DNA of 46,453 bases from Verrucomicrobiia bacterium. Lineage in GTDB: Bacteria > Patescibacteriota > UBA1384 > CAILIB01. Below, one piece after another: positions 3,105 to 46,453 of this stretch (its first letter is position 1; each line of letters begins with the position of its first letter). A program made the position numbers and the translations under genes. Location of the stretch: NCBI GenBank assembly GCA_035460805.1, contig DATHWI010000120.1, positions 1 to 46,453 on the forward strand. Reading direction: 5' to 3'. Below the pieces are notes generated by a model. It searched no databases. It was not told where the DNA came from and saw nothing but the letters and a program-made list of their open reading frames with translations.

Positions 3105-3851
3105 TCAATTAGTATTTGGCTCCCAGAGGCTCATAAACAAGCTCTCCATGCTTGCCACAATGGACTGGTGCTTAATCATCACCACTAACGGTGGCGTACC
3201 TGAAAACAAATAAAGCTTGTTCCCCATAATCCAAAGGGAGGCATCAAAGTCGACACCCTCTGGCAGCTGGCGGAGCTCAATCCGCTGTTTGGCCAGCTTC
3301 TGCGGGTCAACGTCGCCCACACTCCCCGCAGGAACAAGGGTCTTGGTGGAAATGCCGCGCCGGTCTTTCATGTTGAGCATGGCGTAGTAGTACTCGTCGC
3401 TGAGGACTTTTTGGTAGTTCCCGCTGAGTGGCGAGTCTATGGTCAGAATTTCATCACCTTTTTTGAGGGTGGCAATCTCCCGCTCAATAAAACTACGGAT
3501 CGCATCGCGCGTATCCAACACCTTTACCGCAGGTACTGCAGAATCTGCCCGGTACATGTCGGTCAAGAGCAGGTTCAAATGGTCAGCAACCACCAACTTA
3601 GCCTCCAGAGTTTCCTTAAGGACATTGGGCGATTCGACCCAATAAGAAATAACCCCCTTGTACTTATTGGCACTGACAAAGCCCCCTTCCTCGAGCCGGG
3701 AAAGGATGCTGATGACAGTAGTCCGGGACAGGTCCACCTTCTTGGCTACTACACTGGCCTTTGCTTCACCAAGGGTAGTAAGGGCGGCATACACCTTGGC
3801 CTCGTTTTTACTGAGGCCTAATTCCCTCAACGTGCTGCGTAGTTTTTCCAT
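3105..3851 (-). CDS. TrmB-family transcriptional regulator (paralog 1)
   Basis: N-terminal winged HTH LRELGLSKNEAKVYAALTTLGEAKASVVAKKVDLSRTTVISILSRLEEGGFV. The ~250-aa length is typical of TrmB. Confidence 0.85.
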   Translation of the reverse strand: MEKLRSTLRELGLSKNEAKVYAALTTLGEAKASVVAKKVDLSRTTVISILSRLEEGGFVSANKYKGVISYWVESPNVLKETLEAKLVVADHLNLLLTDMYRADSAVPAVKVLDTRDAIRSFIEREIATLKKGDEILTIDSPLSGNYQKVLSDEYYYAMLNMKDRRGISTKTLVPAGSVGDVDPQKLAKQRIELRQLPEGVDFDASLWIMGNKLYLFSGTPPLVVMIKHQSIVASMESLFMSLWEPNTN

Positions 3852-3867
3852 AAGGATAGCAAGATAG

Positions 3868-3885
3868 TGTCGAATATTATCGACA
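3868..3885. promoter_or_regulatory. Palindrome TGTCGA-N6-TCGACA, candidate TrmB autoregulatory operator
   Basis: Perfect 6-bp inverted arms 17 nt upstream of the TrmB start. They fill the spacer between a candidate -35 TTTACT (3885-3890) and -10 TATCTT (3861-3866) on the minus strand. Confidence 0.45.
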
Positions 3886-4013
3886 GTAAAATACTCCTTT
3901 TACAGGTTTATGTCTAGTTATTTTAAGAAAATAAATTCTTTTTAAGATTTTCTTCTTCAGAAAACAGATCATCGAAGCGTAATCGGTCTTTGACAACCTG
4001 TCCTAAGGAAATC

Positions 4014-5039
4014 ATGAAAACTAACTACCTGTTCCCTGGAACCTTCTCTCCCCCAACCTATGGGCACGCCGCCTTAGTCAGCGAAGCTGCACAACACCTT
4101 CCCCACCTCACCGTTGTCTGTTCAGAAAACCCCACCAAGTCCGCCTCCTGGTTCACCCCAGAAGAGGCGGTAGGGCTCTGGCAGGCTTACTCCCTGCCCC
4201 GCAATGTTTCCATCACTACGCTTGCTGCCATCAGGCAGGAAAAGCTTAACCCCCGGTCAATTGTGATGGTCCGCGGGATCCGCGACGAATCTGATGTCGA
4301 AGCAGAGCGCGGCGTCATGCAGTACAACCGGGAGCACTTTGGCATTACCAAGTTCCTCTACCTGCACTGTGCGCCAGAGTTTGCCGATGTCTCCTCTTCC
4401 AGTGCACGCGTTGCCGCTGAAGGACTGGATTTCACCACGCTTGCCCATCTGTGCTCTCCCCTAGTAGTAACCAAGCTCCTGGAGCACACACTGGGAATAG
4501 CCAACCTTTTCCTGGTTGTGGGGAAGCCGGGAAGTGGGAAATCAACCCTTCTCACGGAGTTCTGTTCCCAGTACCCGGAGGCCGTCCGTATTACCACTGA
4601 CGGATTCAACCACACTCTCCGGCCACTCCTGGAGGCGGCCTTCCCCGGCAAGGAACTGCTTGCCGTAGCAAAGGACCAAGAAGCCGCCCTTATTGCGGCT
4701 ATCAAGGAGCCGTGGCTTGCCCTCCTCCGCGAGGAGCTTCTCAAGTGCAAGGGTATGAGCCATGTGTTTGTAGAGGCAGCTTATGGTTTGCAACCCAATA
4801 AGGAGCTCTTCCGTCTCTTAGGCGGCAAGGCTATCTACGTTGGCTGCACTACCCGGCGCTGCACTGCGCGCAACCACAAGCGAGGGACACCGGAACTCCT
4901 TCCCTTCGTTCCCCGTATTCCTGGTTGGGCGGCTTCCAAGCAGATTGCCCAGCGGCACAACCTTTCCCTTGCCCGTGTCTCTACAGACACCGGCCTTGAC
5001 CAGAGCATTGCCCAACTGGAGGCCATACTCAGGAGATAA
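4014..5039 (+). CDS. coaD: Pantetheine-phosphate adenylyltransferase (CoaD) fused to a C-terminal P-loop kinase-like domain
   Basis: FPGTFSPPTYGH (nucleotidyltransferase HxGH motif), VRGIRDESDVEAE and VSSSSARV align with PPAT. The downstream half carries VVGKPGSGKSTLL. ATG 4014 has AGGA upstream (the ORF opens at TTG 3990). Confidence 0.85.
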   Translation: MKTNYLFPGTFSPPTYGHAALVSEAAQHLPHLTVVCSENPTKSASWFTPEEAVGLWQAYSLPRNVSITTLAAIRQEKLNPRSIVMVRGIRDESDVEAERGVMQYNREHFGITKFLYLHCAPEFADVSSSSARVAAEGLDFTTLAHLCSPLVVTKLLEHTLGIANLFLVVGKPGSGKSTLLTEFCSQYPEAVRITTDGFNHTLRPLLEAAFPGKELLAVAKDQEAALIAAIKEPWLALLREELLKCKGMSHVFVEAAYGLQPNKELFRLLGGKAIYVGCTTRRCTARNHKRGTPELLPFVPRIPGWAASKQIAQRHNLSLARVSTDTGLDQSIAQLEAILRR

Positions 5040-5475: not shown

Positions 5476-6264
5476 TCATTTCTTGGCAGCATCCCAAAGC
5501 GCATCAAACAATGCGGTGTAATTTGCTGCCAAGTTGCGGTTAGTAAGCTTAATGCCGGACAAGTCCCCTTCCCGTAGGGAGAGAATGACCACTACGTCGC
5601 CTAAACTATATTGGGCAAAAGCAGTGACTGCATTCTTTTGGGTTAGGTATTTGGTTTGTGTATTTTTTCTTTGGGCATAGTAAGCCGCCTTGCCCCTCTC
5701 CAACGGCGAGCCATTCACCAATAGTTTGGTAGCAAGGTTCTTTTCTTGCTTCAACCGGGCAACCCGCTGCTTCCACGCATCTTCAAAGACAAAGGCCCAA
5801 GTAGGAGACCAAACAAACTCATCCCGAATGAGCCTGAGTTCCGCGCCCTCAGGCGCTTGGCGCAGCATCTCCAAATAGGTACGCTTCAGCCCCTCCTGCC
5901 CCTCAAAGAAGATGGCCTGCGGCACCAGGTTGTCGTTCTTACTGAGTGATTCAATTGCTACCTGGAGGCCGTTAAGCAGGCTGACGCGCCCATTGGCCCG
6001 CTCCTGCTCGGTTTTCACAAACTGCTCCAAAGAATCGTACCCAAGCGCCTCGAACTGCTTAACATCGTTCTTATATGTTGTACCTACCAAGCCTTTGGCA
6101 ATGAGGGAGCTTAAAGTGGTGTACACACTGCTGCGCGACAAGCCGAGGCGCTTGGCAACCACAGTTGCGCTGCTTGGTGAGTGCTCGAGCAATACCGCTA
6201 AAACCTTTGCCTCGTAGTCACCAAGCCCCAAGGCCTGCAAGTTGGAAGGGAGTTGAGTATCCAT
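5476..6264 (-). CDS. TrmB-family transcriptional regulator (paralog 2)
   Basis: N-terminal LQALGLGDYEAKVLAVLLEHSPSSATVVAKRLGLSRSSVYTTLSSLIAKGLV. Confidence 0.85.
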   Translation of the reverse strand: MDTQLPSNLQALGLGDYEAKVLAVLLEHSPSSATVVAKRLGLSRSSVYTTLSSLIAKGLVGTTYKNDVKQFEALGYDSLEQFVKTEQERANGRVSLLNGLQVAIESLSKNDNLVPQAIFFEGQEGLKRTYLEMLRQAPEGAELRLIRDEFVWSPTWAFVFEDAWKQRVARLKQEKNLATKLLVNGSPLERGKAAYYAQRKNTQTKYLTQKNAVTAFAQYSLGDVVVILSLREGDLSGIKLTNRNLAANYTALFDALWDAAKK

Positions 6265-26906: not shown

Positions 26907-28568
26907 TTACTCTTTATTTCCAGCCAGCTTAGGGCGCCAACCCCGCTCCAGGGCTAGCTCCAGTGTCTCAATGGCATCTTTCTGTGGGCTTTCCCGGAGG
27001 ATGCCCATCACGTCATCGTGGTCGTAATCCAAGGTATCGCGCAGTTCGTTAGCCAGCCTTAGGATATCCTTAAAGCTCTTCCCTGGTTGGTACCCTATCT
27101 CAACCAACTCCCTACCCATAAGCAGGTCGGCAGGCTTGCCCTGCTCCACATCCACTTCTCTGGCGCGCTCCATGAGCCAAGGTCCGGCGGAGAAATCGTC
27201 AGGCATCTTCAGGTTCCCTTCCCCATCAGGGAATGGACCCCTGCCCAAGTAATCGGCTTCGGCCACCATTACCAACTCTTCCATGGTAGCTGGGTAGATC
27301 CGTGCCGCTAACCGGCGGATAGCACCTTTGCCTATCGCGTTCCCGTGCTCCACCTCTGTTTTATAGAGCTGGTGAGGCATCATGTGGTCGCGTACCAAGT
27401 TAAGCACCTTTTGGCGCTGAATATTGCCTTTGCCAACTATCCCAATGGAGTCCAGGAACCGCTCAGTAGGTTCCACACCCGCCGCCTCATGCCCCAACGC
27501 CCTGATGTGGCCATCTATATGCTCCGTAGTGGCGGGTTTCCCAAGGTCGTGACAAAGGTCTGCCAAAATTACGGTAAACGCCTTCTCCGGATCAGTACCC
27601 CTTTTCTTAATGCCTTCGGCGCCCTTGTCGACCACCATCAGGGTGTGGGTCCACACATCCCCTTCAGGGTGAAACTCTGGGTCTTGCTCAGTCTCCGCAA
27701 GCGGTGGGAAATCTGGGTATGTTTCATGGAAAATACCCATTTCCATGGCCATTTTTAACCCCTTGGAGGGCACTTCGGACTTTAAGAGCAGTTTTTGCCA
27801 CTCTGCCACAAACCGTTCACGGGACAGGTGCTTGAGGTGAGGAACCATGTCACGCATCACTTCATAGCTCTCAGGGTCTATGGCCAGGTCAAAGCGCCCC
27901 ACAAACTGAATGCCGCGCATAACGCGAAGGGGGTCATCGGCAAAAAGTTCCGCATCGGTAACGCGCAGTATTTTTTCTTCCAGATCCTTCACCCCACCAT
28001 GCGGGTCATAAATGTCGCCGGTCAGCGGGTTGGCGCAAAGGGTGTTGATGGTGAAATCCCTGCGGCGTGCTGCCTCTTTGATGCTCATGAAGGGGTCAAC
28101 GGTAACCTCCACGTCCGTGTGTCCGTCACCTGTCTTGGAATCTGTGCGCGGAAGGGAGATGTCCAGGTCAAAGCCCTGCTCGGTAAACAGCTTGCGGATA
28201 CCAAAGGCCTTCCCCACCTCGCTAACCTCGCCAAATTGCGCCGCTACTTCCCCAACCTCTTCAGCCTCCAAGCCAAACACTTCGATGTCAAAATCTTTCG
28301 GGACCTTTCCCGCCAAGTGGTCGCGGACACAGCCACCCACCAAGAAGGCTGCTCCGCCCCGTGCCTGCACTTCAGCGGCAAAGTCGGCCACCACCCTGTA
28401 GGCTTCCGCCTCCCGCTCTAAGCCCTTCTCCTGGAACAGGCCCACAAACTCCTCAACCAATGGAAGGCGCTGCCCCACAATATATTGGTCATCATTCTCA
28501 CCAAAACGCTCAACTTCCATTTGTTCGGGAGCTGGGATAGAGGGTTTTGGGACTTCGCGCTGGTTCAT
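26907..28568 (-). CDS. cca: CCA-adding tRNA nucleotidyltransferase with an HD domain
   Basis: FLVGGCVRDHLAGKVPKDFDIEVF, RRDFTINTL and HD-domain LCHDLGKP motifs. Confidence 0.9.
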   Translation of the reverse strand: MNQREVPKPSIPAPEQMEVERFGENDDQYIVGQRLPLVEEFVGLFQEKGLEREAEAYRVVADFAAEVQARGGAAFLVGGCVRDHLAGKVPKDFDIEVFGLEAEEVGEVAAQFGEVSEVGKAFGIRKLFTEQGFDLDISLPRTDSKTGDGHTDVEVTVDPFMSIKEAARRRDFTINTLCANPLTGDIYDPHGGVKDLEEKILRVTDAELFADDPLRVMRGIQFVGRFDLAIDPESYEVMRDMVPHLKHLSRERFVAEWQKLLLKSEVPSKGLKMAMEMGIFHETYPDFPPLAETEQDPEFHPEGDVWTHTLMVVDKGAEGIKKRGTDPEKAFTVILADLCHDLGKPATTEHIDGHIRALGHEAAGVEPTERFLDSIGIVGKGNIQRQKVLNLVRDHMMPHQLYKTEVEHGNAIGKGAIRRLAARIYPATMEELVMVAEADYLGRGPFPDGEGNLKMPDDFSAGPWLMERAREVDVEQGKPADLLMGRELVEIGYQPGKSFKDILRLANELRDTLDYDHDDVMGILRESPQKDAIETLELALERGWRPKLAGNKE

Positions 28569-35948: not shown

Positions 35949-35977
35949 TTGACAAATAGGCTTGAACATGCTACTAT
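35949..35977 (+). promoter_or_regulatory. Sigma70-like promoter
   Basis: TTGACA-N17-TACTAT. Confidence 0.6.
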
Positions 35978-39805: not shown

Positions 39806-40558
39806 GTGGATTTACCTGAATACCTCAAAAAACTCGGTCTTGGAGCCAAAGAAGCCCGTACGTACCTGGCCTGTCTTGAGCTTGGGGAATCCAATATTGT
39901 CCCTATTGCTGAGAAGGTTAAGCTTCCCCGCACCTCAGTGGCCTACCTCTTAGAGAAGCTCCAAGAAGAGGGCCTCATTGAGATTCTGGAGCGCCGGGGC
40001 CGCAAGCACTACATTCCGTATCCCCCGCGGAACATCCTTACTAAGTTTAAGGAGAAGGAAGAGCAGGCTAAGGAGCATAGCGCCTCGTTTGCCCAACTTG
40101 TCCCAGAGCTGAACCGGTTATACGAAAACACGCCCCACCAGCCAAAGGTGCGCATCTTTAAGGGTGAAGAGCTGCGGGACATCTATGAGGAAATGCTCAA
40201 CACCAAGCCAAAAGAAATCTGTTACGTAGGAAGTACCAAGCAGATTGAAGAGGTGGTGGGTGCCCGCTTTCTCCAGGATTGGGTAAAGCGCCGGGCGGCT
40301 GCCGGTATCTGGACCCGCGCCATTAGGGTAAAGAGCGAGGAACCTAAGGACTCGGTGTATGCCGCCGGTAAAGAGGGGCAGCGGGATGTCCGTTACGCCC
40401 CTACCGGGTTTAAGAGCCCTGCTAATATCCTCATCTATGGCGATACGGTTGTAGTAGTCACTACTGCAAAGGAGAGTTTTGGTGTAGTGACCACCTCCCC
40501 AGATTACGCCACCAGTATGCAGAGTTGGTTTGAGGAGCTGTGGGAAAAGTGTGCATAA
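39806..40558 (+). CDS. TrmB-family transcriptional regulator (paralog 3)
   Basis: LKKLGLGAKEARTYLACLELGESNIVPIAEKVKLPRTSVAYLLEKLQEEGLI. GTG start. Confidence 0.85.
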   Translation: MDLPEYLKKLGLGAKEARTYLACLELGESNIVPIAEKVKLPRTSVAYLLEKLQEEGLIEILERRGRKHYIPYPPRNILTKFKEKEEQAKEHSASFAQLVPELNRLYENTPHQPKVRIFKGEELRDIYEEMLNTKPKEICYVGSTKQIEEVVGARFLQDWVKRRAAAGIWTRAIRVKSEEPKDSVYAAGKEGQRDVRYAPTGFKSPANILIYGDTVVVVTTAKESFGVVTTSPDYATSMQSWFEELWEKCA

Positions 40559-40995: not shown

Positions 40996-41718
40996 ATGAG
41001 CATAGAACGCCTCCTTTCCAGCTTTGGGCTCCGTGAAAAGAAAGCCGCTGTATACCAGGCAGTCCTGGAGCGCGGCTCTTCTACCGTGCTTCCCCTCGCC
41101 CAACGGGCAGGGATTAACCGGACTACTGCATACGATATCCTTGAAGACCTTCAGATCAGAGGCTTGGTTATCTATAAGGAGATCCGGGGCCGTCGCTACT
41201 ACCAGGCTACTGACCCCCGCCGGTTTAAGCACATCTTGGAACAGCAGCAGAAAGAGGTTGAGCAGTCCCTCCCCGAGCTCCTTGCACTCTATAAGCCGTC
41301 AAAAGAGAAACCAGCCACCCGCTTCTTTGAAGGCAAGGAGGAAATTGCCCTTATTTACCAGGAATTACTCAAAGCATCGTCTATCGATGCATATGGCGAT
41401 TTCACCCGTATCAACTCCTTTTACCCTGATTTTCCCAAGTACGTGCAGCAGCAGATCAACCGTGGCATTAAGATCAGGGATCTCGTACCCTTTGGCACCA
41501 AGTTGGATGAACTCTCTTCCCAGTACCGGTCGCCAAAGCAGGAACTTCGCTACCTACCAAAAGATATGAACCTGGAAACGGATACCATTATCTTTGGCGA
41601 CTCTGTAGCGTTTATCTCTTTTGGTGAGACTGTGCACGGGCTGATTGTAGATAGTAAGGCCATCACCGCCACTCAGCGGAGGCTATTTGAGAATCTCTGG
41701 GAAATAGCCAAGGCTTAA
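40996..41718 (+). CDS. TrmB-family transcriptional regulator (paralog 4)
   Basis: LSSFGLREKKAAVYQAVLERGSSTVLPLAQRAGINRTTAYDILEDLQIRGLV. Confidence 0.85.
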   Translation: MSIERLLSSFGLREKKAAVYQAVLERGSSTVLPLAQRAGINRTTAYDILEDLQIRGLVIYKEIRGRRYYQATDPRRFKHILEQQQKEVEQSLPELLALYKPSKEKPATRFFEGKEEIALIYQELLKASSIDAYGDFTRINSFYPDFPKYVQQQINRGIKIRDLVPFGTKLDELSSQYRSPKQELRYLPKDMNLETDTIIFGDSVAFISFGETVHGLIVDSKAITATQRRLFENLWEIAKA

Positions 41719-41767: not shown

Positions 41768-43891
41768 ATGGATCACGAGTCATTCAGCCGCATCCCCCCT
41801 TCACCAGAGGAGAGTAAGGTAGCCGAGACGGCCGTACGCACCCCCGAAGAGGAGCGTGCCTTTTTCGAACGCCTCCAATCCATTATTCGAACAATTTCGG
41901 AACGCCCCGACTTAGTGGTCACCACTAAGATGTCCCCCGACATACAAGCCCAGATGCAAGCCGAGGGCAAAGATCCGAACGATGCTTGGTACCTGTATAC
42001 GGAATACGACCGAGTAAGCCGTAAGCCAATCCGCCAACACGTGCGTGTCCCCGAGCAGATAGTGGATTCACCCGACTTTGCGCGAGGTGCTGCAGCCCAC
42101 GAAGCAGGACACGTACTTATTACGCGATATGGTGAATTTGTACCCAGGGCGGTCATGCAGGAACTTGGCTTTCACTCGTTAATGGCAGCAGCCGAGGAGC
42201 GGCCTACTGACCATGTGGTCCGGGAACGTTACGAGGGAGCCGGAGCCTGGGTGGACACTACCCGTAAGGAGTTAATTGCCAAGGCGGGAGTACCGGACCC
42301 TACCTCGAAGCTGTTCCCGCAAGCCCCACGCTTTGCCCAGCTGTGTGATTTGATTGTATTCGACCGATATCACGAGGAAGAAGCGAAAGCCGCTTACTAC
42401 AGCGAAGAGGCCCTTGCTGCCTACGCCAAAATTGATCCCGTGGTGCGAAAAATTGAATCAACACTACCTGCCCCCGGTTCGAGTGAGAAGGAAGTGCGCA
42501 ATAAGGCCATTGAGCGGTACCAAATAGTATATCGAGAACTCTGGCCCATCCTTAAGCCAATGATGGAACAGGACCGGCAAGAGCAGGCCGAGCGCAACTT
42601 GCTTGAAGAAGAGCATGCTGACCATATCCCACAAACTGCAGCCGAGGCTATCGAGCGGATCCTAGACGAAGCCCTTACAGCCGATGGGGAACAAATGCAG
42701 GAACTTTCCCGTGAATTGGTTGAAATTCTCAAGGAAATTTTCGCTATGCTGCCACGCGAGGTGCAAGAAGAACTCCTTCGTCAGGCAACGGAAGAAATGG
42801 AACGGATTGAGGACGAGATTGTAAATGGTTTTGATGCCCGCCTTACCGAAAACCCACCCCTCACCCACTCACAGGTAAAACGCGTCGATGAAATAGAACG
42901 CACGGAAGCTAAACGAAGAGAAGACATTCGCAAAGCAGAAGAAGAAAGGGAGCGGCTCGCACAACCACTCGAGGCGATAGAAATTGGGGGTTCATTAGGT
43001 GAGTATGAACAAGCCTACTCGGCGGTCCGCGAGCTAGACGAGGAGCTGTACGCACGGTTGAGCGAGATTCTGTACCCGAACATTAGAAAGGACGTTAAGC
43101 TCCGTTCAAGTGGCGGCAAACTTAACCTTCCCGCCGTATTCAGGTGGAAAGCCCAGCGAGCCGCAGGAAACACAGGAAACGACAAGATATTCGAGTCAGT
43201 CATTACCCCTGAAGCAAAAGACTATGCATTCGAAATCTTAGTCGACCTTTCAGGCTCCATGAGCCAATCAGGCTACGACGACGATGATGACTATTACGAT
43301 GACGGTGAATATGACAATGAGAAGCCACCAGAGAAGAAACACCTCAGGAAAGTTGATGAGGCATTACGTGCGGTAGCCCTACTCTCTGAAGTACTTGAGC
43401 GCCTGGGTGTCCCGTTTGAGGTCACGGGCTACCAAAACATAGCCTTCACCCTTAAGTCATTTGAAACAGAGTTAGATGACAACTCAAGGACAAGCCTCGG
43501 CTCAATACCGCTTGAGGTCGAAAGTGAGAACCCAGGCGGCAACAACAGGTCGGGCAGCAATAACGATGGCCCCTGTCTCATGACGGCAGCCGCATCGCTG
43601 GCAGCCCAACAAAACAAAAAGAAGTTCCTCCTTGTCCTCTCAGACGGGTTGCCAACCGGTGGAGGGACCATAAATGGGGAGCGCCTCGATCCATACCAAG
43701 CACTGACGCAGGCTGTGGCCCACATCAGCAGCCAAGAAGATATCCACTTGGTTGGCATTGGCGTAGGAGAAGGAACTGACCACGTCGCTAATTACTACCC
43801 TACTGCCCTTCCCAATATCCGCGCAGAAGTATTGGCGGAGCAGCTTGGCGCACTCCTGGAAGACATTATTCTCCGGCCAGAAGCATACTAA
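41768..43891 (+). CDS. HExxH-motif protein with a Glu/Arg-rich helical linker and a C-terminal vWA (MIDAS) domain, CobT/NorD/CbbO-like
   Basis: AAAHEAGHVL (42098-42112), MIDAS VDLSGSMS (43244-43258), an acidic insert DDDDDYYDDGEYD, and LLVLSDGLP. The first ATG is at 41768 (the ORF opens at TTG 41750). There is no clear SD. Confidence 0.85.
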   Translation: MDHESFSRIPPSPEESKVAETAVRTPEEERAFFERLQSIIRTISERPDLVVTTKMSPDIQAQMQAEGKDPNDAWYLYTEYDRVSRKPIRQHVRVPEQIVDSPDFARGAAAHEAGHVLITRYGEFVPRAVMQELGFHSLMAAAEERPTDHVVRERYEGAGAWVDTTRKELIAKAGVPDPTSKLFPQAPRFAQLCDLIVFDRYHEEEAKAAYYSEEALAAYAKIDPVVRKIESTLPAPGSSEKEVRNKAIERYQIVYRELWPILKPMMEQDRQEQAERNLLEEEHADHIPQTAAEAIERILDEALTADGEQMQELSRELVEILKEIFAMLPREVQEELLRQATEEMERIEDEIVNGFDARLTENPPLTHSQVKRVDEIERTEAKRREDIRKAEEERERLAQPLEAIEIGGSLGEYEQAYSAVRELDEELYARLSEILYPNIRKDVKLRSSGGKLNLPAVFRWKAQRAAGNTGNDKIFESVITPEAKDYAFEILVDLSGSMSQSGYDDDDDYYDDGEYDNEKPPEKKHLRKVDEALRAVALLSEVLERLGVPFEVTGYQNIAFTLKSFETELDDNSRTSLGSIPLEVESENPGGNNRSGSNNDGPCLMTAAASLAAQQNKKKFLLVLSDGLPTGGGTINGERLDPYQALTQAVAHISSQEDIHLVGIGVGEGTDHVANYYPTALPNIRAEVLAEQLGALLEDIILRPEAY

Positions 43892-43893
43892 CG

Positions 43894-44063
43894 AAAAAAG
43901 CCCCCCACACGGGGAGGGCTAGAAATGTTTGTGAGTTTGGGTTCTCCACCGGATTGGCTACCAGAGTGCACCATGGCTAGGTGCGGGGAAAACCCTACGA
44001 GTGACAAGGGCGGGATATTCGCATCCCGCACAACAGAACTTGATTATTAAATCAAATTTTGAT
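43894..44063 (-). ncRNA. Candidate small RNA, copy 1 (~170 nt)
   Basis: It runs from the predicted TSS, 7 nt after the -10 at 44070-44075, to the minus-strand terminator GCCCUCCCCGUGUGGGGGGC-UUUUUU (43894-43919). It contains the conserved core with two UAGCCA-loop hairpins. The ends are approximate. Confidence 0.5.
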
Positions 44064-44069
44064 GATGAG

Positions 44070-44098
44070 ATACTAACATCTTTTCGCCAAAATGTCAA
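44070..44098 (-). promoter_or_regulatory. Sigma70-like promoter of sRNA copy 1
   Basis: Minus strand reads TTGACA-N17-TAGTAT. Confidence 0.6.
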
Positions 44099-44177
44099 GA
44101 AGCTATGGAGCGTGGCTTTTTCGAAAGCTGACGTTACCCATGGAGGGTACTATTCTCCGGCCAGAAGCGTACCAAAG

Positions 44178-44328
44178 AAAAAAGCCTCCTTATTTAAGGA
44201 GGCTGTGAATTCGGACTTATGTTCAGTCTTCCACCGGATTGGCTACCAGAGTGCACCATGGCTAGGCGCGGGAACACTTACGATGACGAGACGAGATGTG
44301 GGCCATCTCTTACATACCACATTTTGAT
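44178..44328 (-). ncRNA. Candidate small RNA, copy 2 (~151 nt)
   Basis: It runs from the predicted TSS after the -10 at 44335-44340 to the minus-strand terminator GCCUCCUU-AAAU-AAGGAGGC-UUUUUU (44178-44203). The ends are approximate. Confidence 0.5.
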
Positions 44329-44334
44329 GATGGG

Positions 44335-44363
44335 ATAGTAACACGTTTTCGCTAAAATGTCAA
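44335..44363 (-). promoter_or_regulatory. Sigma70-like promoter of sRNA copy 2
   Basis: Minus strand reads TTGACA-N17-TACTAT. Confidence 0.6.
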
Positions 44364-44463
44364 TGGGTTATGGGGTTTTTAGCTATCCTCAGGGATTAAC
44401 CCTACCTGTAGAGAGGTAAAAACTTTTCGCTCAGAGGCGGCGCCTGCTACACTAAAGCTACAT

Positions 44464-44862
44464 ATGGATGAAACATTGAAGGAAAAATTGCAGGATTACC
44501 TAGAGGGGCTTTCCTCAATCCACCTCGCCGACCATGTCGCCTTGGGAGCGGTTGTCTTCCCTGGCCACTTCCGACCAGAAGTGAACAGCAACGTTCGTGA
44601 AGCAGGCATCCCTGTAGAAGAACTGAACCATTTCGACCATTCCTTCTCCAGGCCGGTTGTTGAGTCGGCACTTAGGCAAGGCGAAGCCATTGCCCTTAAT
44701 TGCTCCAGTGAGCCCCAAGCCTCCTTCCTGTCATTTCTTCGCTCAAACCTAGATACTGTCACAGCCCAGTTCAACGGTACCGTACTTCTCCTCCTTTCGG
44801 ATGAGCAGTATGCCCACCTTCCCCTGCAGGAAGAACTTACATCCGTCTGTTCCCTCGCATGA
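44464..44862 (+). CDS. Hypothetical protein (132 aa), translationally coupled to the AAA+ gene
   Basis: ATG start. Its stop overlaps the next start (ATGA). Confidence 0.65.
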   Translation: MDETLKEKLQDYLEGLSSIHLADHVALGAVVFPGHFRPEVNSNVREAGIPVEELNHFDHSFSRPVVESALRQGEAIALNCSSEPQASFLSFLRSNLDTVTAQFNGTVLLLLSDEQYAHLPLQEELTSVCSLA

Positions 44863-46453
44863 GTACAGGCAACTTTGAACGCCCTTCTCTGCCATCTGCA
44901 GAAATTGAGCCAACCCAGCGGTTTGAAAAGCCACACGTACTTCAAGACGTGACGTTTGAAGTACGTCCCAAAGGAGCGAACAAGTTTGAGTACCGAAGCA
45001 GTTCTCCAGACAGGAAACTGGTTGTCCTCTCCCTAGACAGCGACCCGCCCGTTACTGGCATGATTTATGACGTGGAGGTCATAGACGACAGTGCACCGGA
45101 CAACCCAATGGGAGGGAAATATACGGTACGGCTGTACTTTGGCAGTGGGGAAGAATTGGACGGACAAGAACTCCCCTTACCCTTAGTTGAGAACCAAACT
45201 GAGCAGCAACCCCGCAAGCCCCGCCCACTAGAGGTTAGCCCAGACGGTGAGACGCTCTATGTCCTCTCCACCGAGATACCGTACAACCAAGAGGGCGGCA
45301 CCCGGGTGCCGTCTCGGGAGCGCTTCACCCACTTCATGTTAGATGAGCGGACACTTCGTACAATCGAGAAGGTCGCCACCGCAGTAGAACTGCAGCAACC
45401 ATGTCTCCTGGAAGGTGAGACTGCTGCGTCTAAGACCAGCTCCATCGAGTACCTGGCCATGGCGTCAAACCATAATGTCATCCGCGTCAACCTTAATGGC
45501 CAGACAGACACCTCCGAACTTATTGGTAAGTTTGTACCGAACGACGGCAGGCTTGAGATAGAGTTTTCCCAAGCACTAGCGAGTGAGCATCTCATTGGTG
45601 ACGAATCACGTGCCATTATTACTGCCGCCCAGGAAGATGGTCGCGCACTTACGCTCTTGGAATGTCAGAAAATCGCCCATAACGAGCAGATTGAGATCCC
45701 AGAATGGCGCTGGAAAGACGGTGTAGTGCCGGAAGCTATGAGATCTGGCGCCTGGCTCATCTTAGATGAGATCAACCTTGCGGAACCTCAAATCCTAGAG
45801 CGCCTGAACTCCGTACTTGAAAAAGACCCTTCGCTTTTTCTTTCAGAAAATGGCGGCGCAACTATCGGCCCAGAAGGAGATCTACCAACGCACGAGAATT
45901 TCCGCATTTTTGGCACCATGAACCCTGCTAGCTATGCGGGGCGTTCAGCCATGTCTCCTGCCTATAAAGACCGCTGGACCAGCTACATGTACGTTCCTTC
46001 CCCTGGCGAGGGTGACTACCTGGATATGATGAAGCTGCTTGTCTACGGTATCCAGCCGCAGGTCACCATAGACGGCACTGCTTACAAAGAAGATGACCGA
46101 GAGCCAGAGTATCCCCAGTTGTCGGAAATTGAGAATCTCCCTATTTTTCTAGCCCGACTAGCCAAGTTCCAGATAACAATCGAGGAGATGGCACGCGTGG
46201 GAACCATAGGTCGCACACGCAAGGAAAAGTACGTATTCACTCGCCGCGGGTTGCTAGAGATGCTCAATTACGCCGAGAACAAGAGCTTACTTGATCGCTC
46301 CAGTGGTAAGCGCGTGACAGTAGCCGACGACCCTCAGCGCATCCTCTCCAAAGCGGTTACGTACTACTTCTTGGATAAAATCACTGATTCGGATGACCGG
46401 AAGAAGGTGCAGGACCAGCTTGATGCAATTGGCCTCCTTTCCAATAGTTGGCT
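44859..46453 (+). CDS. AAA_5 (MoxR/CbbQ/NorQ/midasin-like) ATPase, 3'-truncated by the window end
   Basis: The frame is open from ATG 44859 to the window end. It is absent from the ORF track because no stop is reached. Walker A-like LLEGETAASKTS (45414-45437), Walker B WLILDEINLAEPQILERLNSVLE (45756-45776) and FRIFGTMNP. There is a ~185-aa N-terminal extension. Confidence 0.85.
   Translation, partial: MSTGNFERPSLPSAEIEPTQRFEKPHVLQDVTFEVRPKGANKFEYRSSSPDRKLVVLSLDSDPPVTGMIYDVEVIDDSAPDNPMGGKYTVRLYFGSGEELDGQELPLPLVENQTEQQPRKPRPLEVSPDGETLYVLSTEIPYNQEGGTRVPSRERFTHFMLDERTLRTIEKVATAVELQQPCLLEGETAASKTSSIEYLAMASNHNVIRVNLNGQTDTSELIGKFVPNDGRLEIEFSQALASEHLIGDESRAIITAAQEDGRALTLLECQKIAHNEQIEIPEWRWKDGVVPEAMRSGAWLILDEINLAEPQILERLNSVLEKDPSLFLSENGGATIGPEGDLPTHENFRIFGTMNPASYAGRSAMSPAYKDRWTSYMYVPSPGEGDYLDMMKLLVYGIQPQVTIDGTAYKEDDREPEYPQLSEIENLPIFLARLAKFQITIEEMARVGTIGRTRKEKYVFTRRGLLEMLNYAENKSLLDRSSGKRVTVADDPQRILSKAVTYYFLDKITDSDDRKKVQDQLDAIGLLSNSW

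Follow-up and report, generated by a model that had tools for sequence, protein, structure and literature searches.

Tandem sibling small RNAs (sRNAs) are known from several groups of bacteria, among them PrrF1/PrrF2 of Pseudomonas, OmrA/OmrB of E. coli and AbcR1/AbcR2 of Rhizobiales. To our knowledge, the regulatory RNAs of Candidate Phyla Radiation (CPR) bacteria such as Saccharibacteria are almost unexplored. Here, we analyzed two predicted sRNA units, sRNA1 and sRNA2, on the minus strand of a contig of 46,453 nucleotides (GenBank assembly GCA_035460805.1, contig DATHWI010000120.1), the whole of which is called the window in the following. The host is an uncultivated, probable CPR bacterium; this tentative placement relies on TerC, the one protein of the window with a named relative, which comes from Candidatus Saccharibacteria and is 66% identical. 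As in the PrrF, Omr and AbcR pairs, the units are adjacent paralogues, each has its own promoter and its own Rho-independent terminator, and both contain a short, near-identical core in otherwise diverged sequence. Unlike in those pairs, to which there is no sequence or Rfam relation, the core is a pair of hairpin loops instead of a single-stranded seed, the host is the probable CPR bacterium, and the family is linked to a cluster of protein genes.

CsrB and RsmZ offer a second comparison, since they also present one short motif repeatedly, in the loops of hairpins whose stems vary; in addition, the motif described here is likewise found in another, longer RNA of the same genome (in the related locus L004, see below). 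In contrast to CsrB and RsmZ, the motif is (U)AGCCA or CCGCCAUA instead of GGA and is present in two to four copies instead of up to about 20. The window contains no Rfam match to CsrB, RsmY or RsmZ, and no CsrA/RsmA partner was identified in the 46 kb, in which CsrA-like open reading frames (ORFs) were not searched for.

Judged from the sequence, the two units are very probably real sRNAs that belong to a real family. We propose that they would be independently transcribed siblings which arose by tandem duplication, and that they would be members of a "GCCA-loop hairpin" RNA family. This family is absent from Rfam 15; the kind of molecule is familiar, but the family itself appears to be new, with the coupling to an AAA_5/vWA gene cluster as an added feature.

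Anatomy of the two units

The minus-strand sequence of both units was read over positions 43500-44700. A consensus scan of 43300-45000 detected only two promoter-like sites, both on the minus strand, and these are the two promoters that an earlier reading of the DNA without database searches (the sequence-only reading) had proposed (Table 1). The promoter regions of sRNA2 and sRNA1 are 82% identical when the spacer is counted. The same promoter consensus is located ahead of protein genes elsewhere in the window, for instance at 35949 and 35320, and many genes of the window end in intrinsic terminators of the type found in the sRNA units; the signals thus suit this organism. For sRNA2, the transcription start was placed 7 nt past the -10 box by prediction. 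Both terminators have T6 on the minus strand only, while the plus-strand hairpins run into TAGAAATGTTTG and GTGAATTCGGAC and lack a U tract, in agreement with the earlier claim that they would function in the minus orientation alone. The terminator stems of the two units differ through compensatory changes, as seen in the pairwise alignment. The end of the sRNA1 terminator and the vWA stop codon are 2 nt apart, and no downstream gene was found on the minus strand 3' of the units at the window locus. The sRNA region is identical base for base in ENA ERZ23203616 and GCA_041287945.1, which makes three assemblies in all. The two additional assemblies are from the same organism, and given this identity the tandem arrangement is not a one-off assembly artefact.

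A core of 33 nt is present exactly twice, at 43949-43981 and 44234-44266, and no match of this kind was found in 100 shuffles. The 43-nt block around it is 98% identical between the copies and the flanks are ~81% identical (repeat finder and pairwise alignment); promoter and post-terminator regions reach ~81-82%, and the 5' part can be aligned only partly. Folding yielded two adjacent stem-loops within an enclosing stem, both showing UAGCCA, as had been read from the letters. The single A-to-G substitution in the core keeps the pairing, since it turns an A-U pair into a G-U pair (GCACC/GGUGC compared with GCGCC/GGUGC). The folding z-scores are -4.1 for sRNA1 and -2.2 for sRNA2, and the probability of being unpaired is 0.98 and 0.84 for the two UAGCCA motifs of sRNA1 and 0.95 and 0.78 for those of sRNA2. 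The twin loops are located more than 25 nt from the terminator.

The 5' hairpins were described by the sequence-only reading as unrelated, which turned out to be wrong. Their stems, GCGGGAU/AUCCCGC and GAGAUG/CAUCUC, align between the copies with one compensatory change from G-C to A-U, and an insertion of 17 nt in sRNA1 makes an additional 5' hairpin (pairwise alignment). The repeat unit of ~284 bp that had been reported is correct for the 3' part, where the spacing is 284-285 nt, but the promoters are only 265 nt apart and the unit also holds a decayed end of the vWA gene. Within the repeat family termed D2, 43852-43905 and 44136-44189 are 81% identical, and the original vWA gene end lies at 43852-43891. 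The decayed gene end inside the repeat indicates that the pair arose by tandem duplication of a segment consisting of vWA 3' end, terminator, sRNA and promoter.

Table 1. Features of the sRNA locus and of the neighbouring genes in the window.
Feature	Position	Strand	Basis or remark
sRNA2 promoter, TTGACA-N17-TG-n-TACTAT	44335..44363	-	Consensus scan, 10/12, TG extension
sRNA2, predicted transcript of ~152 nt: conserved 5' AUCAUCAAAAU, 5' hairpin, three-way junction, terminator	44177..44328	-	Sequence, folding
sRNA2 junction, enclosing stem AGUGUUCC/GGAAGACU around hairpins 1 and 2	44225..44278	-	Folding
sRNA2 hairpin 1, GCGCC-UAGCCAU-GGUGC	44253-44269	-	Folding
sRNA2 hairpin 2, CUGG-UAGCCAAU-CCGG	44234-44249	-	Folding
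sRNA2 intrinsic terminator, 9-bp stem (44183-44204) followed by U6	44177..44204	-	Terminator scan
sRNA1 promoter, TTGACA-N17-TG-n-TAGTAT	44070..44098	-	Consensus scan, 10/12, TG extension
sRNA1, predicted transcript of ~171 nt: conserved 5' end, two 5' hairpins, three-way junction, terminator	43893..44063	-	Sequence, folding
sRNA1 junction, enclosing stem GGGUUUUCC/GGAGAACCC around hairpins 1 and 2	43939..43995	-	Folding
sRNA1 hairpin 1, GCACC-UAGCCAU-GGUGC	43968-43984	-	Folding
sRNA1 hairpin 2, CUGG-UAGCCAAU-CCGG	43949-43964	-	Folding
sRNA1 intrinsic terminator, 8-bp stem (43899-43920) followed by U6	43893..43920	-	Terminator scan
Decayed copy of the vWA gene end (last ~13 codons, ~40 nt)	44136..44176	+	Repeat finder
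Two TrmB-family winged-helix regulators	39806-40558, 40996-41718	+	Upstream of the cluster
Partner gene 1: 707-aa protein, N-terminal HExxH (metallopeptidase-like), C-terminal CobT/NorD/Midasin-like vWA/MIDAS	41768..43891	+	Pfam, NCBIfam, alignment, model
Partner gene 2: 132-aa protein, divergent from sRNA2	44464..44862	+	Position conserved in nine loci
Partner gene 3: AAA_5 (MoxR/CobS/dynein-type) ATPase, 534 aa, runs off the window end	44859..46453	+	Domain search

The loop motif in related loci

Relatives of the locus were reached via the vWA protein, for which BLASTP yielded 18 non-self homologues with 34-43% identity; the contigs encoding them are the L-numbered loci. These contigs were scanned for hairpins with GCCA-containing loops of 7-8 nt, and their sequence was then read. 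Six further loci (L001, L004, L128, L138, L139 and L140; vWA proteins 39-43% identical) carry promoter-to-terminator units beside homologous vWA/small-protein/AAA_5 clusters. Counted over independent homologous loci, small units are present at most 1.7 kb from the AAA gene in seven of eleven. In each of the seven loci, promoter, terminator and motif share one strand, and the independently transcribed minus-strand sRNAs claimed for the window, with a repeated loop as the functional element, are supported at the level of the sequence.

Four of these loci have UAGCCA loops, one of them together with AAGCCAG and UAUCCAU, and the stems are unrelated. The cluster of L001 is directly followed by three units on the plus strand; clear promoters and terminators were seen for two of these. 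Eight copies of TAGCCA are present in the 932 nt of these units, where 0.23 would be expected, in hairpins such as GGUCGC-UAGCCAU-GCGACU, UUGGC-UAGCCAU-GCCAA, GAGUUGC-UAGCCAC-GCAACUC and AGCAGCGGU-UAGCCAA-ACCGUUGCU. L128, L138, L139 and L140 each have one minus-strand unit with a TTGACA-N17 promoter, a predicted RNA of 170-260 nt and a strong terminator, located directly upstream of and divergent from the AAA gene and containing two to four such loops; the loops of L139 are CAGCCAU and UAGCCAC. An automatic gene call of 90 aa in L138 (3083-3355, plus strand) lies opposite the predicted sRNA and is probably spurious. Four tandem minus-strand units of two subtypes are found in L004 between the small-protein and AAA genes (8810-10470, minus strand). 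Most of their loops are CCGCCAUA, and one hairpin reads CCUCC-UAGCCAA-GGAGG. Extra repeated hairpins were seen between the L004 units, namely GGUGCC-GGUG-GGCACC and a 10-bp stem, the latter just before each -35 box. In L004, L128, L138, L139 and L140, the -35 box of the sRNA is 1-7 nt away from the AAA start codon on the opposite strand.

Loops of one genome mostly share a sequence, and this sequence differs from genome to genome. All four loops in the window and all seven in L001 are UAGCCA. In L004, CCGCCAUA is present at six loops, which are spread over the four sRNAs and a separate non-coding region of ~0.9 kb (two of the six are there). Both hairpins of a candidate large RNA in L005 contain CCGUCAUA, a concerted change on unrelated stems.

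The sequence-only reading had asked for homologues and for a covariation check, and the related loci indeed show the same loop on different stems that still pair. An ungapped alignment of 18 UAGCCA-type hairpins from the seven loci has 78.9% paired cells compared with 49.9% after shuffling, and 24 double-sided changes compared with 6.5. The covariation score is 0.725 (shuffled: 0.186), a value reached by none of 500 shuffles, and controls with a slid register gave scores of at most 0.22. Counted without regard to structure and on both strands, TAGCCA has a density of 4.9 per kb in the units and of 0.24 per kb in the remaining 354 kb, a 20-fold difference. It forms a 7-8-nt loop closed by at least 3 bp in 16 of 21 cases inside the units and in 7 of 84 outside (Fisher p = 1e-9). 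In folds of the whole transcripts, 16 of the 19 UAGCCA motifs scored are unpaired with a probability of at least 0.56, 13 of these with 0.8-1.0.

That the family could not be recognized from the letters agrees with the database searches. Rfam 15 yielded no match for the whole window at gathering thresholds, and for the sRNA region at E <= 10 it gave chance-level matches only, well under threshold. In the related loci, Rfam matches were limited to tRNA and transfer-messenger RNA (tmRNA)-like elements, all outside the units. Searches of GTDB species genomes, JGI metagenomes and IMG/VR with exact and with purine/pyrimidine-degenerate twin-hairpin patterns yielded no match; these patterns fixed both the spacing and the stem class too tightly. 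A looser two-loop pattern gave 120 chance matches in IMG/VR, none with stems. Searches with blastn against plasmid and phage collections detected no similar DNA.

Several known identities were considered for the window locus and rejected. ANTAR, Y RNA, ToxI, tmRNA and tRNA-like identities are ruled out by Rfam and ARAGORN. An ANTAR target would be a dual hexaloop in a 5' leader, with loops of 6 nt and the second hairpin overlapping the terminator; the loops here are 7 and 8 nt long and lie inside an enclosing stem. A ToxI-like type III antitoxin would consist of ~36-nt repeats in one transcript with the toxin gene; the repeats here are full transcription units of ~285 nt with no downstream gene.

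The neighbouring genes and other RNA elements

The protein encoded by partner gene 1 is a member of a rare family with 19 clusters among 5.8 billion proteins. Its HExxH motif (H111, E112, H115) and further acidic residues are invariant in all 19 aligned family members, which suggests that a zinc metallopeptidase at the N-terminus is joined to a MIDAS domain. Pfam and NCBIfam detected CobT_C/vWA only, and the AlphaFold (AF2) model, with a confidence score (pLDDT) of 80.9, matches only the MIDAS domains of NorD and Rea1/MDN1 (Midasin). No viral relatives of the protein were found. The arrangement resembles Ro60 with its Y RNA or YrlA, in that non-coding RNA genes adjoin the gene of a vWA/MIDAS protein. 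Unlike Ro60, which combines TROVE with vWA, the partners here are an HExxH-vWA protein and an AAA_5 ATPase; a Ro60-like identity was rejected because Pfam, NCBIfam and the fold search revealed no TROVE domain and the model is unlike Ro60. Rfam models also detected no Y RNA stem or tRNA-like module. For the 132-aa protein, a word-based search found no homologues, and there was no Pfam or PDB match. A TrmB gene adjoins the cluster in L004 and L136 as well.

A PADLOC scan assigned no defence system. It gave a weak, sub-significant DruC match for the vWA protein (E = 0.00019), and both TrmB proteins match CARF/Csa3/CasR models via their winged-helix region.

A TATAAT-like box 6-9 nt ahead of the start codon, together with the lack of a Shine-Dalgarno sequence, is seen at many genes, and others have a clear GGAGG. 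With the -10 box this close to the start codon, the former genes look leaderless; examples are found at 40996, 41768, 33774 and 26907-28568 (start at 28568) in the window, at 6001 and 8152 in L001 and at 10292 in L128.

Three related loci contain a gene-free region of ~0.7-0.9 kb (L004 ~3700-4643, L136 ~3600-4453 and L005 ~1300-1988, all on the minus strand). It lies behind a TTGACA-N17-TACAAT/TACACT promoter, has islands that are strongly conserved among the three loci, and carries twin hairpins with identical loops, CCGCCAUA in L004 and L136 and CCGUCAUA in L005. We regard it as a candidate for a large structured RNA, for which Rfam gave no match. Among L004, L136 and L005, the ORFs that follow it show no conservation, and blastn found no homologue in the window.

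Rfam matches to tmRNA (RF00023) of only 68-71 nt are located in L004 (3409-3476, minus strand, 59.8 bits) and L136 (2473-2543, minus strand, 53.3 bits). They correspond to the tRNA-like domain alone: an acceptor stem with G3:U70 and a T arm are present, in L004 also a 3' ACCA, and P2 is closed by a loop of 3-4 nt without an mRNA-like part. ARAGORN calls none of them. At 13483-13509 (minus strand), L136 also contains the 3' end of a normal tmRNA that is cut by the contig end, so that the region may be an island next to ssrA. In addition, a repeated hairpin, UGCCCGAC-UUNG-GUCGGGCA followed by CUUUCCUCUC, was seen ahead of several small unconserved ORFs (L004 1049-1068, 2278-2297 and 3573-3590; L136 3587-3605; all minus strand).

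What may read the loops

The observations to be explained are the anatomy of the units, the conservation of the motif with covariation in its stems, the coupling to the gene cluster and the consistency of the strand. The functional elements would be the 7-8-nt loops (UAGCCAU and UAGCCAAU in the window), at least two per RNA, on stems that are free to vary in sequence. That each RNA has the conserved loop at least twice, on free stems, argues for recognition of the loop by a factor acting in trans. Many sites that follow one specificity per genome are the pattern expected of a single protein reader, and as the linkage is conserved for one gene cluster, this suggests that the cluster encodes the reader or the machine that is regulated. 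We therefore tentatively prefer a reading in which the loops would be sequence-specific protein docking sites, with a role tied to the AAA_5/vWA-metalloprotease module. The family is coupled to a three-gene module of vWA-metalloprotease, a protein of ~130-150 aa and AAA_5 ATPase, and the reader would most plausibly be module-encoded, either as the small protein or as one domain within the ATPase or the vWA protein. The sRNAs, with promoters back to back with the ATPase (or small-protein-plus-ATPase) genes, would serve as ligands, decoys or regulators of the AAA+/vWA machine.

A precedent for loops read by a dimeric protein is the E. coli thrS operator, in which two anticodon-arm mimics are bound by dimeric threonyl-tRNA synthetase. 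The window units resemble it in that two stem-loops share a 7-nt loop, as would suit a dimeric reader, and UAGCCAU resembles the anticodon loop of tRNA-Gly(GCC) at positions 34-37. Unlike in the thrS operator, position 33 is A and not the universal U, the elements are stand-alone sRNAs and not part of an mRNA leader, and there is no adjacent synthetase gene.

Several points weigh against protein docking. We infer the transcription of the sRNAs, the partner that they would bind and the resulting regulation from sequence, and the module proteins have no recognisable RNA-binding domain. Clusters in L132 and L133 lack such an RNA in the stretch covered, and those in L005 and L136 have the large RNA only; linkage to the module was assessed in the neighbourhoods of vWA homologues only. 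The hairpins in the covariation set were partly chosen for having stems, since the scan required them, and some sRNA intervals were drawn after the motif had been seen, which makes the enrichment statistics partly post hoc. Finally, the units of L128 and L138 also contain a complementary GGCUA paired to one UAGCCA copy, a hint that base pairing of the motif matters. In L128 (10760-10785, minus strand), motif and complement form a perfect 9-bp hairpin, UUGUGGCUA/UAGCCACAA, and the L138 counterpart is at ~3180-3285 (minus strand). The internal GGCUA may be a mimic of whatever the loop pairs with.

This last point is shared with the main rival, trans base pairing, which we consider somewhat unlikely. 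The loops would be seeds that kiss (A/U/G)UGGC(UA), a start codon followed by GCN, and thereby repress or activate translation. Every loop variant is complementary to a start codon plus GC (GCCAU/AUGGC, GCCAA/UUGGC, GCCAC/GUGGC and CCGCCAUA/UAUGGCGG), and many genes in the window and the related loci look leaderless. Repeated loop seeds are established for RsaE and LhrC-type sRNAs, and the units resemble RsaE/RoxS and LhrC-type RNAs in their repeated identical loop motifs able to seed pairing; in contrast to the C-rich seeds of those RNAs, the window loops are complementary to NUGGC and not to the Shine-Dalgarno sequence. The window lineage may lack Hfq. An ORF at 15038-15100 (plus strand) of the window starts with ATGGCTA and has four TGGCTA within 60 nt; these copies stem from repeated Gly-Tyr codons of a probable membrane protein, and the ORF is either a target or a coincidence. 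No gene of the cluster begins with AUGGCUA, however, and TGGCTA is not enriched in the window, with 32 copies found compared with ~23 expected, four of them the complements of the sRNA motifs. Evaluation of a 6-7-nt seed needs the whole genome. A concerted switch of the loop per genome (UAGCCA, CCGCCAUA, CCGUCAUA) would require many targets to change together, and pairing leaves the tight linkage to one cluster unexplained.

Action in cis on the cluster is a further rival, which we judge to be clearly unlikely. Here, transcriptional interference, a bidirectional terminator or an antisense duplex would act against read-through transcripts and the AAA promoter, and the loop would only speed kissing. 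In its favour, six of the seven loci have the unit on the strand opposite to the cluster. The two loci checked in this respect, the window and L128, show the sRNA terminator directly at the stop codon of the preceding gene, in five loci the -35 box adjoins the start codon of the AAA gene, and clusters without the RNA are contiguous with gaps of 15-44 nt. But the three L001 units are downstream of the cluster and on its strand, the plus-strand versions of the terminators lack U tracts, and cis action does not need a loop sequence that is kept across organisms with ~40% identical vWA proteins, since complementarity is automatic. The units of six loci are intergenic between same-strand cluster genes, and an overlap of opposite transcripts exists only if the cluster is read through. 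A small peptide encoded by the core (MVHSGSQSGG... on the minus strand or ...PPDWLPECTMAR... on the plus strand) is the least probable explanation and can be almost disregarded. The sequence-only reading had seen neither a Shine-Dalgarno sequence nor a conserved ORF; the ORFs do diverge outside the core, but short ORFs cross it on both strands, and in copy 1 the ATG of the plus-strand ORF is preceded by GGAGGG at a distance of 7 nt; this ORF was called as a 41-aa gene in one assembly. This call (L006 12158-12283, plus strand, corresponding to window 43925-44050) lies opposite the predicted sRNA and is probably spurious. Against a peptide, the copies diverge in sequence and frame immediately beyond the core, the sole substitution within the core would exchange Cys for Arg in the plus-strand reading, there is no synonymous change over 36 nt with flanks diverged by ~19%, and copy 2 lacks a usable Shine-Dalgarno spacing. 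As a coding sequence, the core shows no conservation: from locus to locus the motif is placed between completely different, unrelated stems, so that no peptide can be conserved. An element acting as DNA, such as a TrmB operator, a REP/MITE-like repeat or a recombinase hairpin site, is very improbable as well: inverted repeats are present in intergenic DNA, several per locus, with TrmB genes nearby in three loci, but it is the spacer, that is the loop, which is conserved and the arms which vary, the opposite of a dimeric operator or REP. Moreover, the motif always reads UAGCCA on the strand of promoter and terminator, and no transposase or integrase, which were not searched for systematically, was seen beside the units.

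A broader form of protein docking seems rather unlikely to us as a whole. According to this, GCCA-loop RNAs would be dedicated partners (cofactors, substrates or allosteric regulators) of a MoxR-type AAA_5/vWA-metalloprotease machine in CPR bacteria, with a genome-specific loop code (UAGCCA, CCGCCAUA, CCGUCAUA) common to the sRNAs and the ~0.7-0.9-kb RNA; nearby, there can also be a tmRNA-like molecule that is limited to the tRNA-like domain. Systems of MoxR/CobS-like ATPases and vWA proteins are widespread, and their substrates are mostly unknown; we know of no AAA_5/vWA system that uses RNA as a partner.

Taken together, an observation made in a single genome has become a small RNA family that is supported by comparison between loci, shows a clear motif and has a defined partner in the genome, and this family is ready for a covariance model and simple binding tests. 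If the loops pair with start codon plus GC, the family would show sRNA control of leaderless mRNAs. If a protein of the module reads them, such a system would, as far as we know, be linked to RNA for the first time, which would provide a handle on its function.

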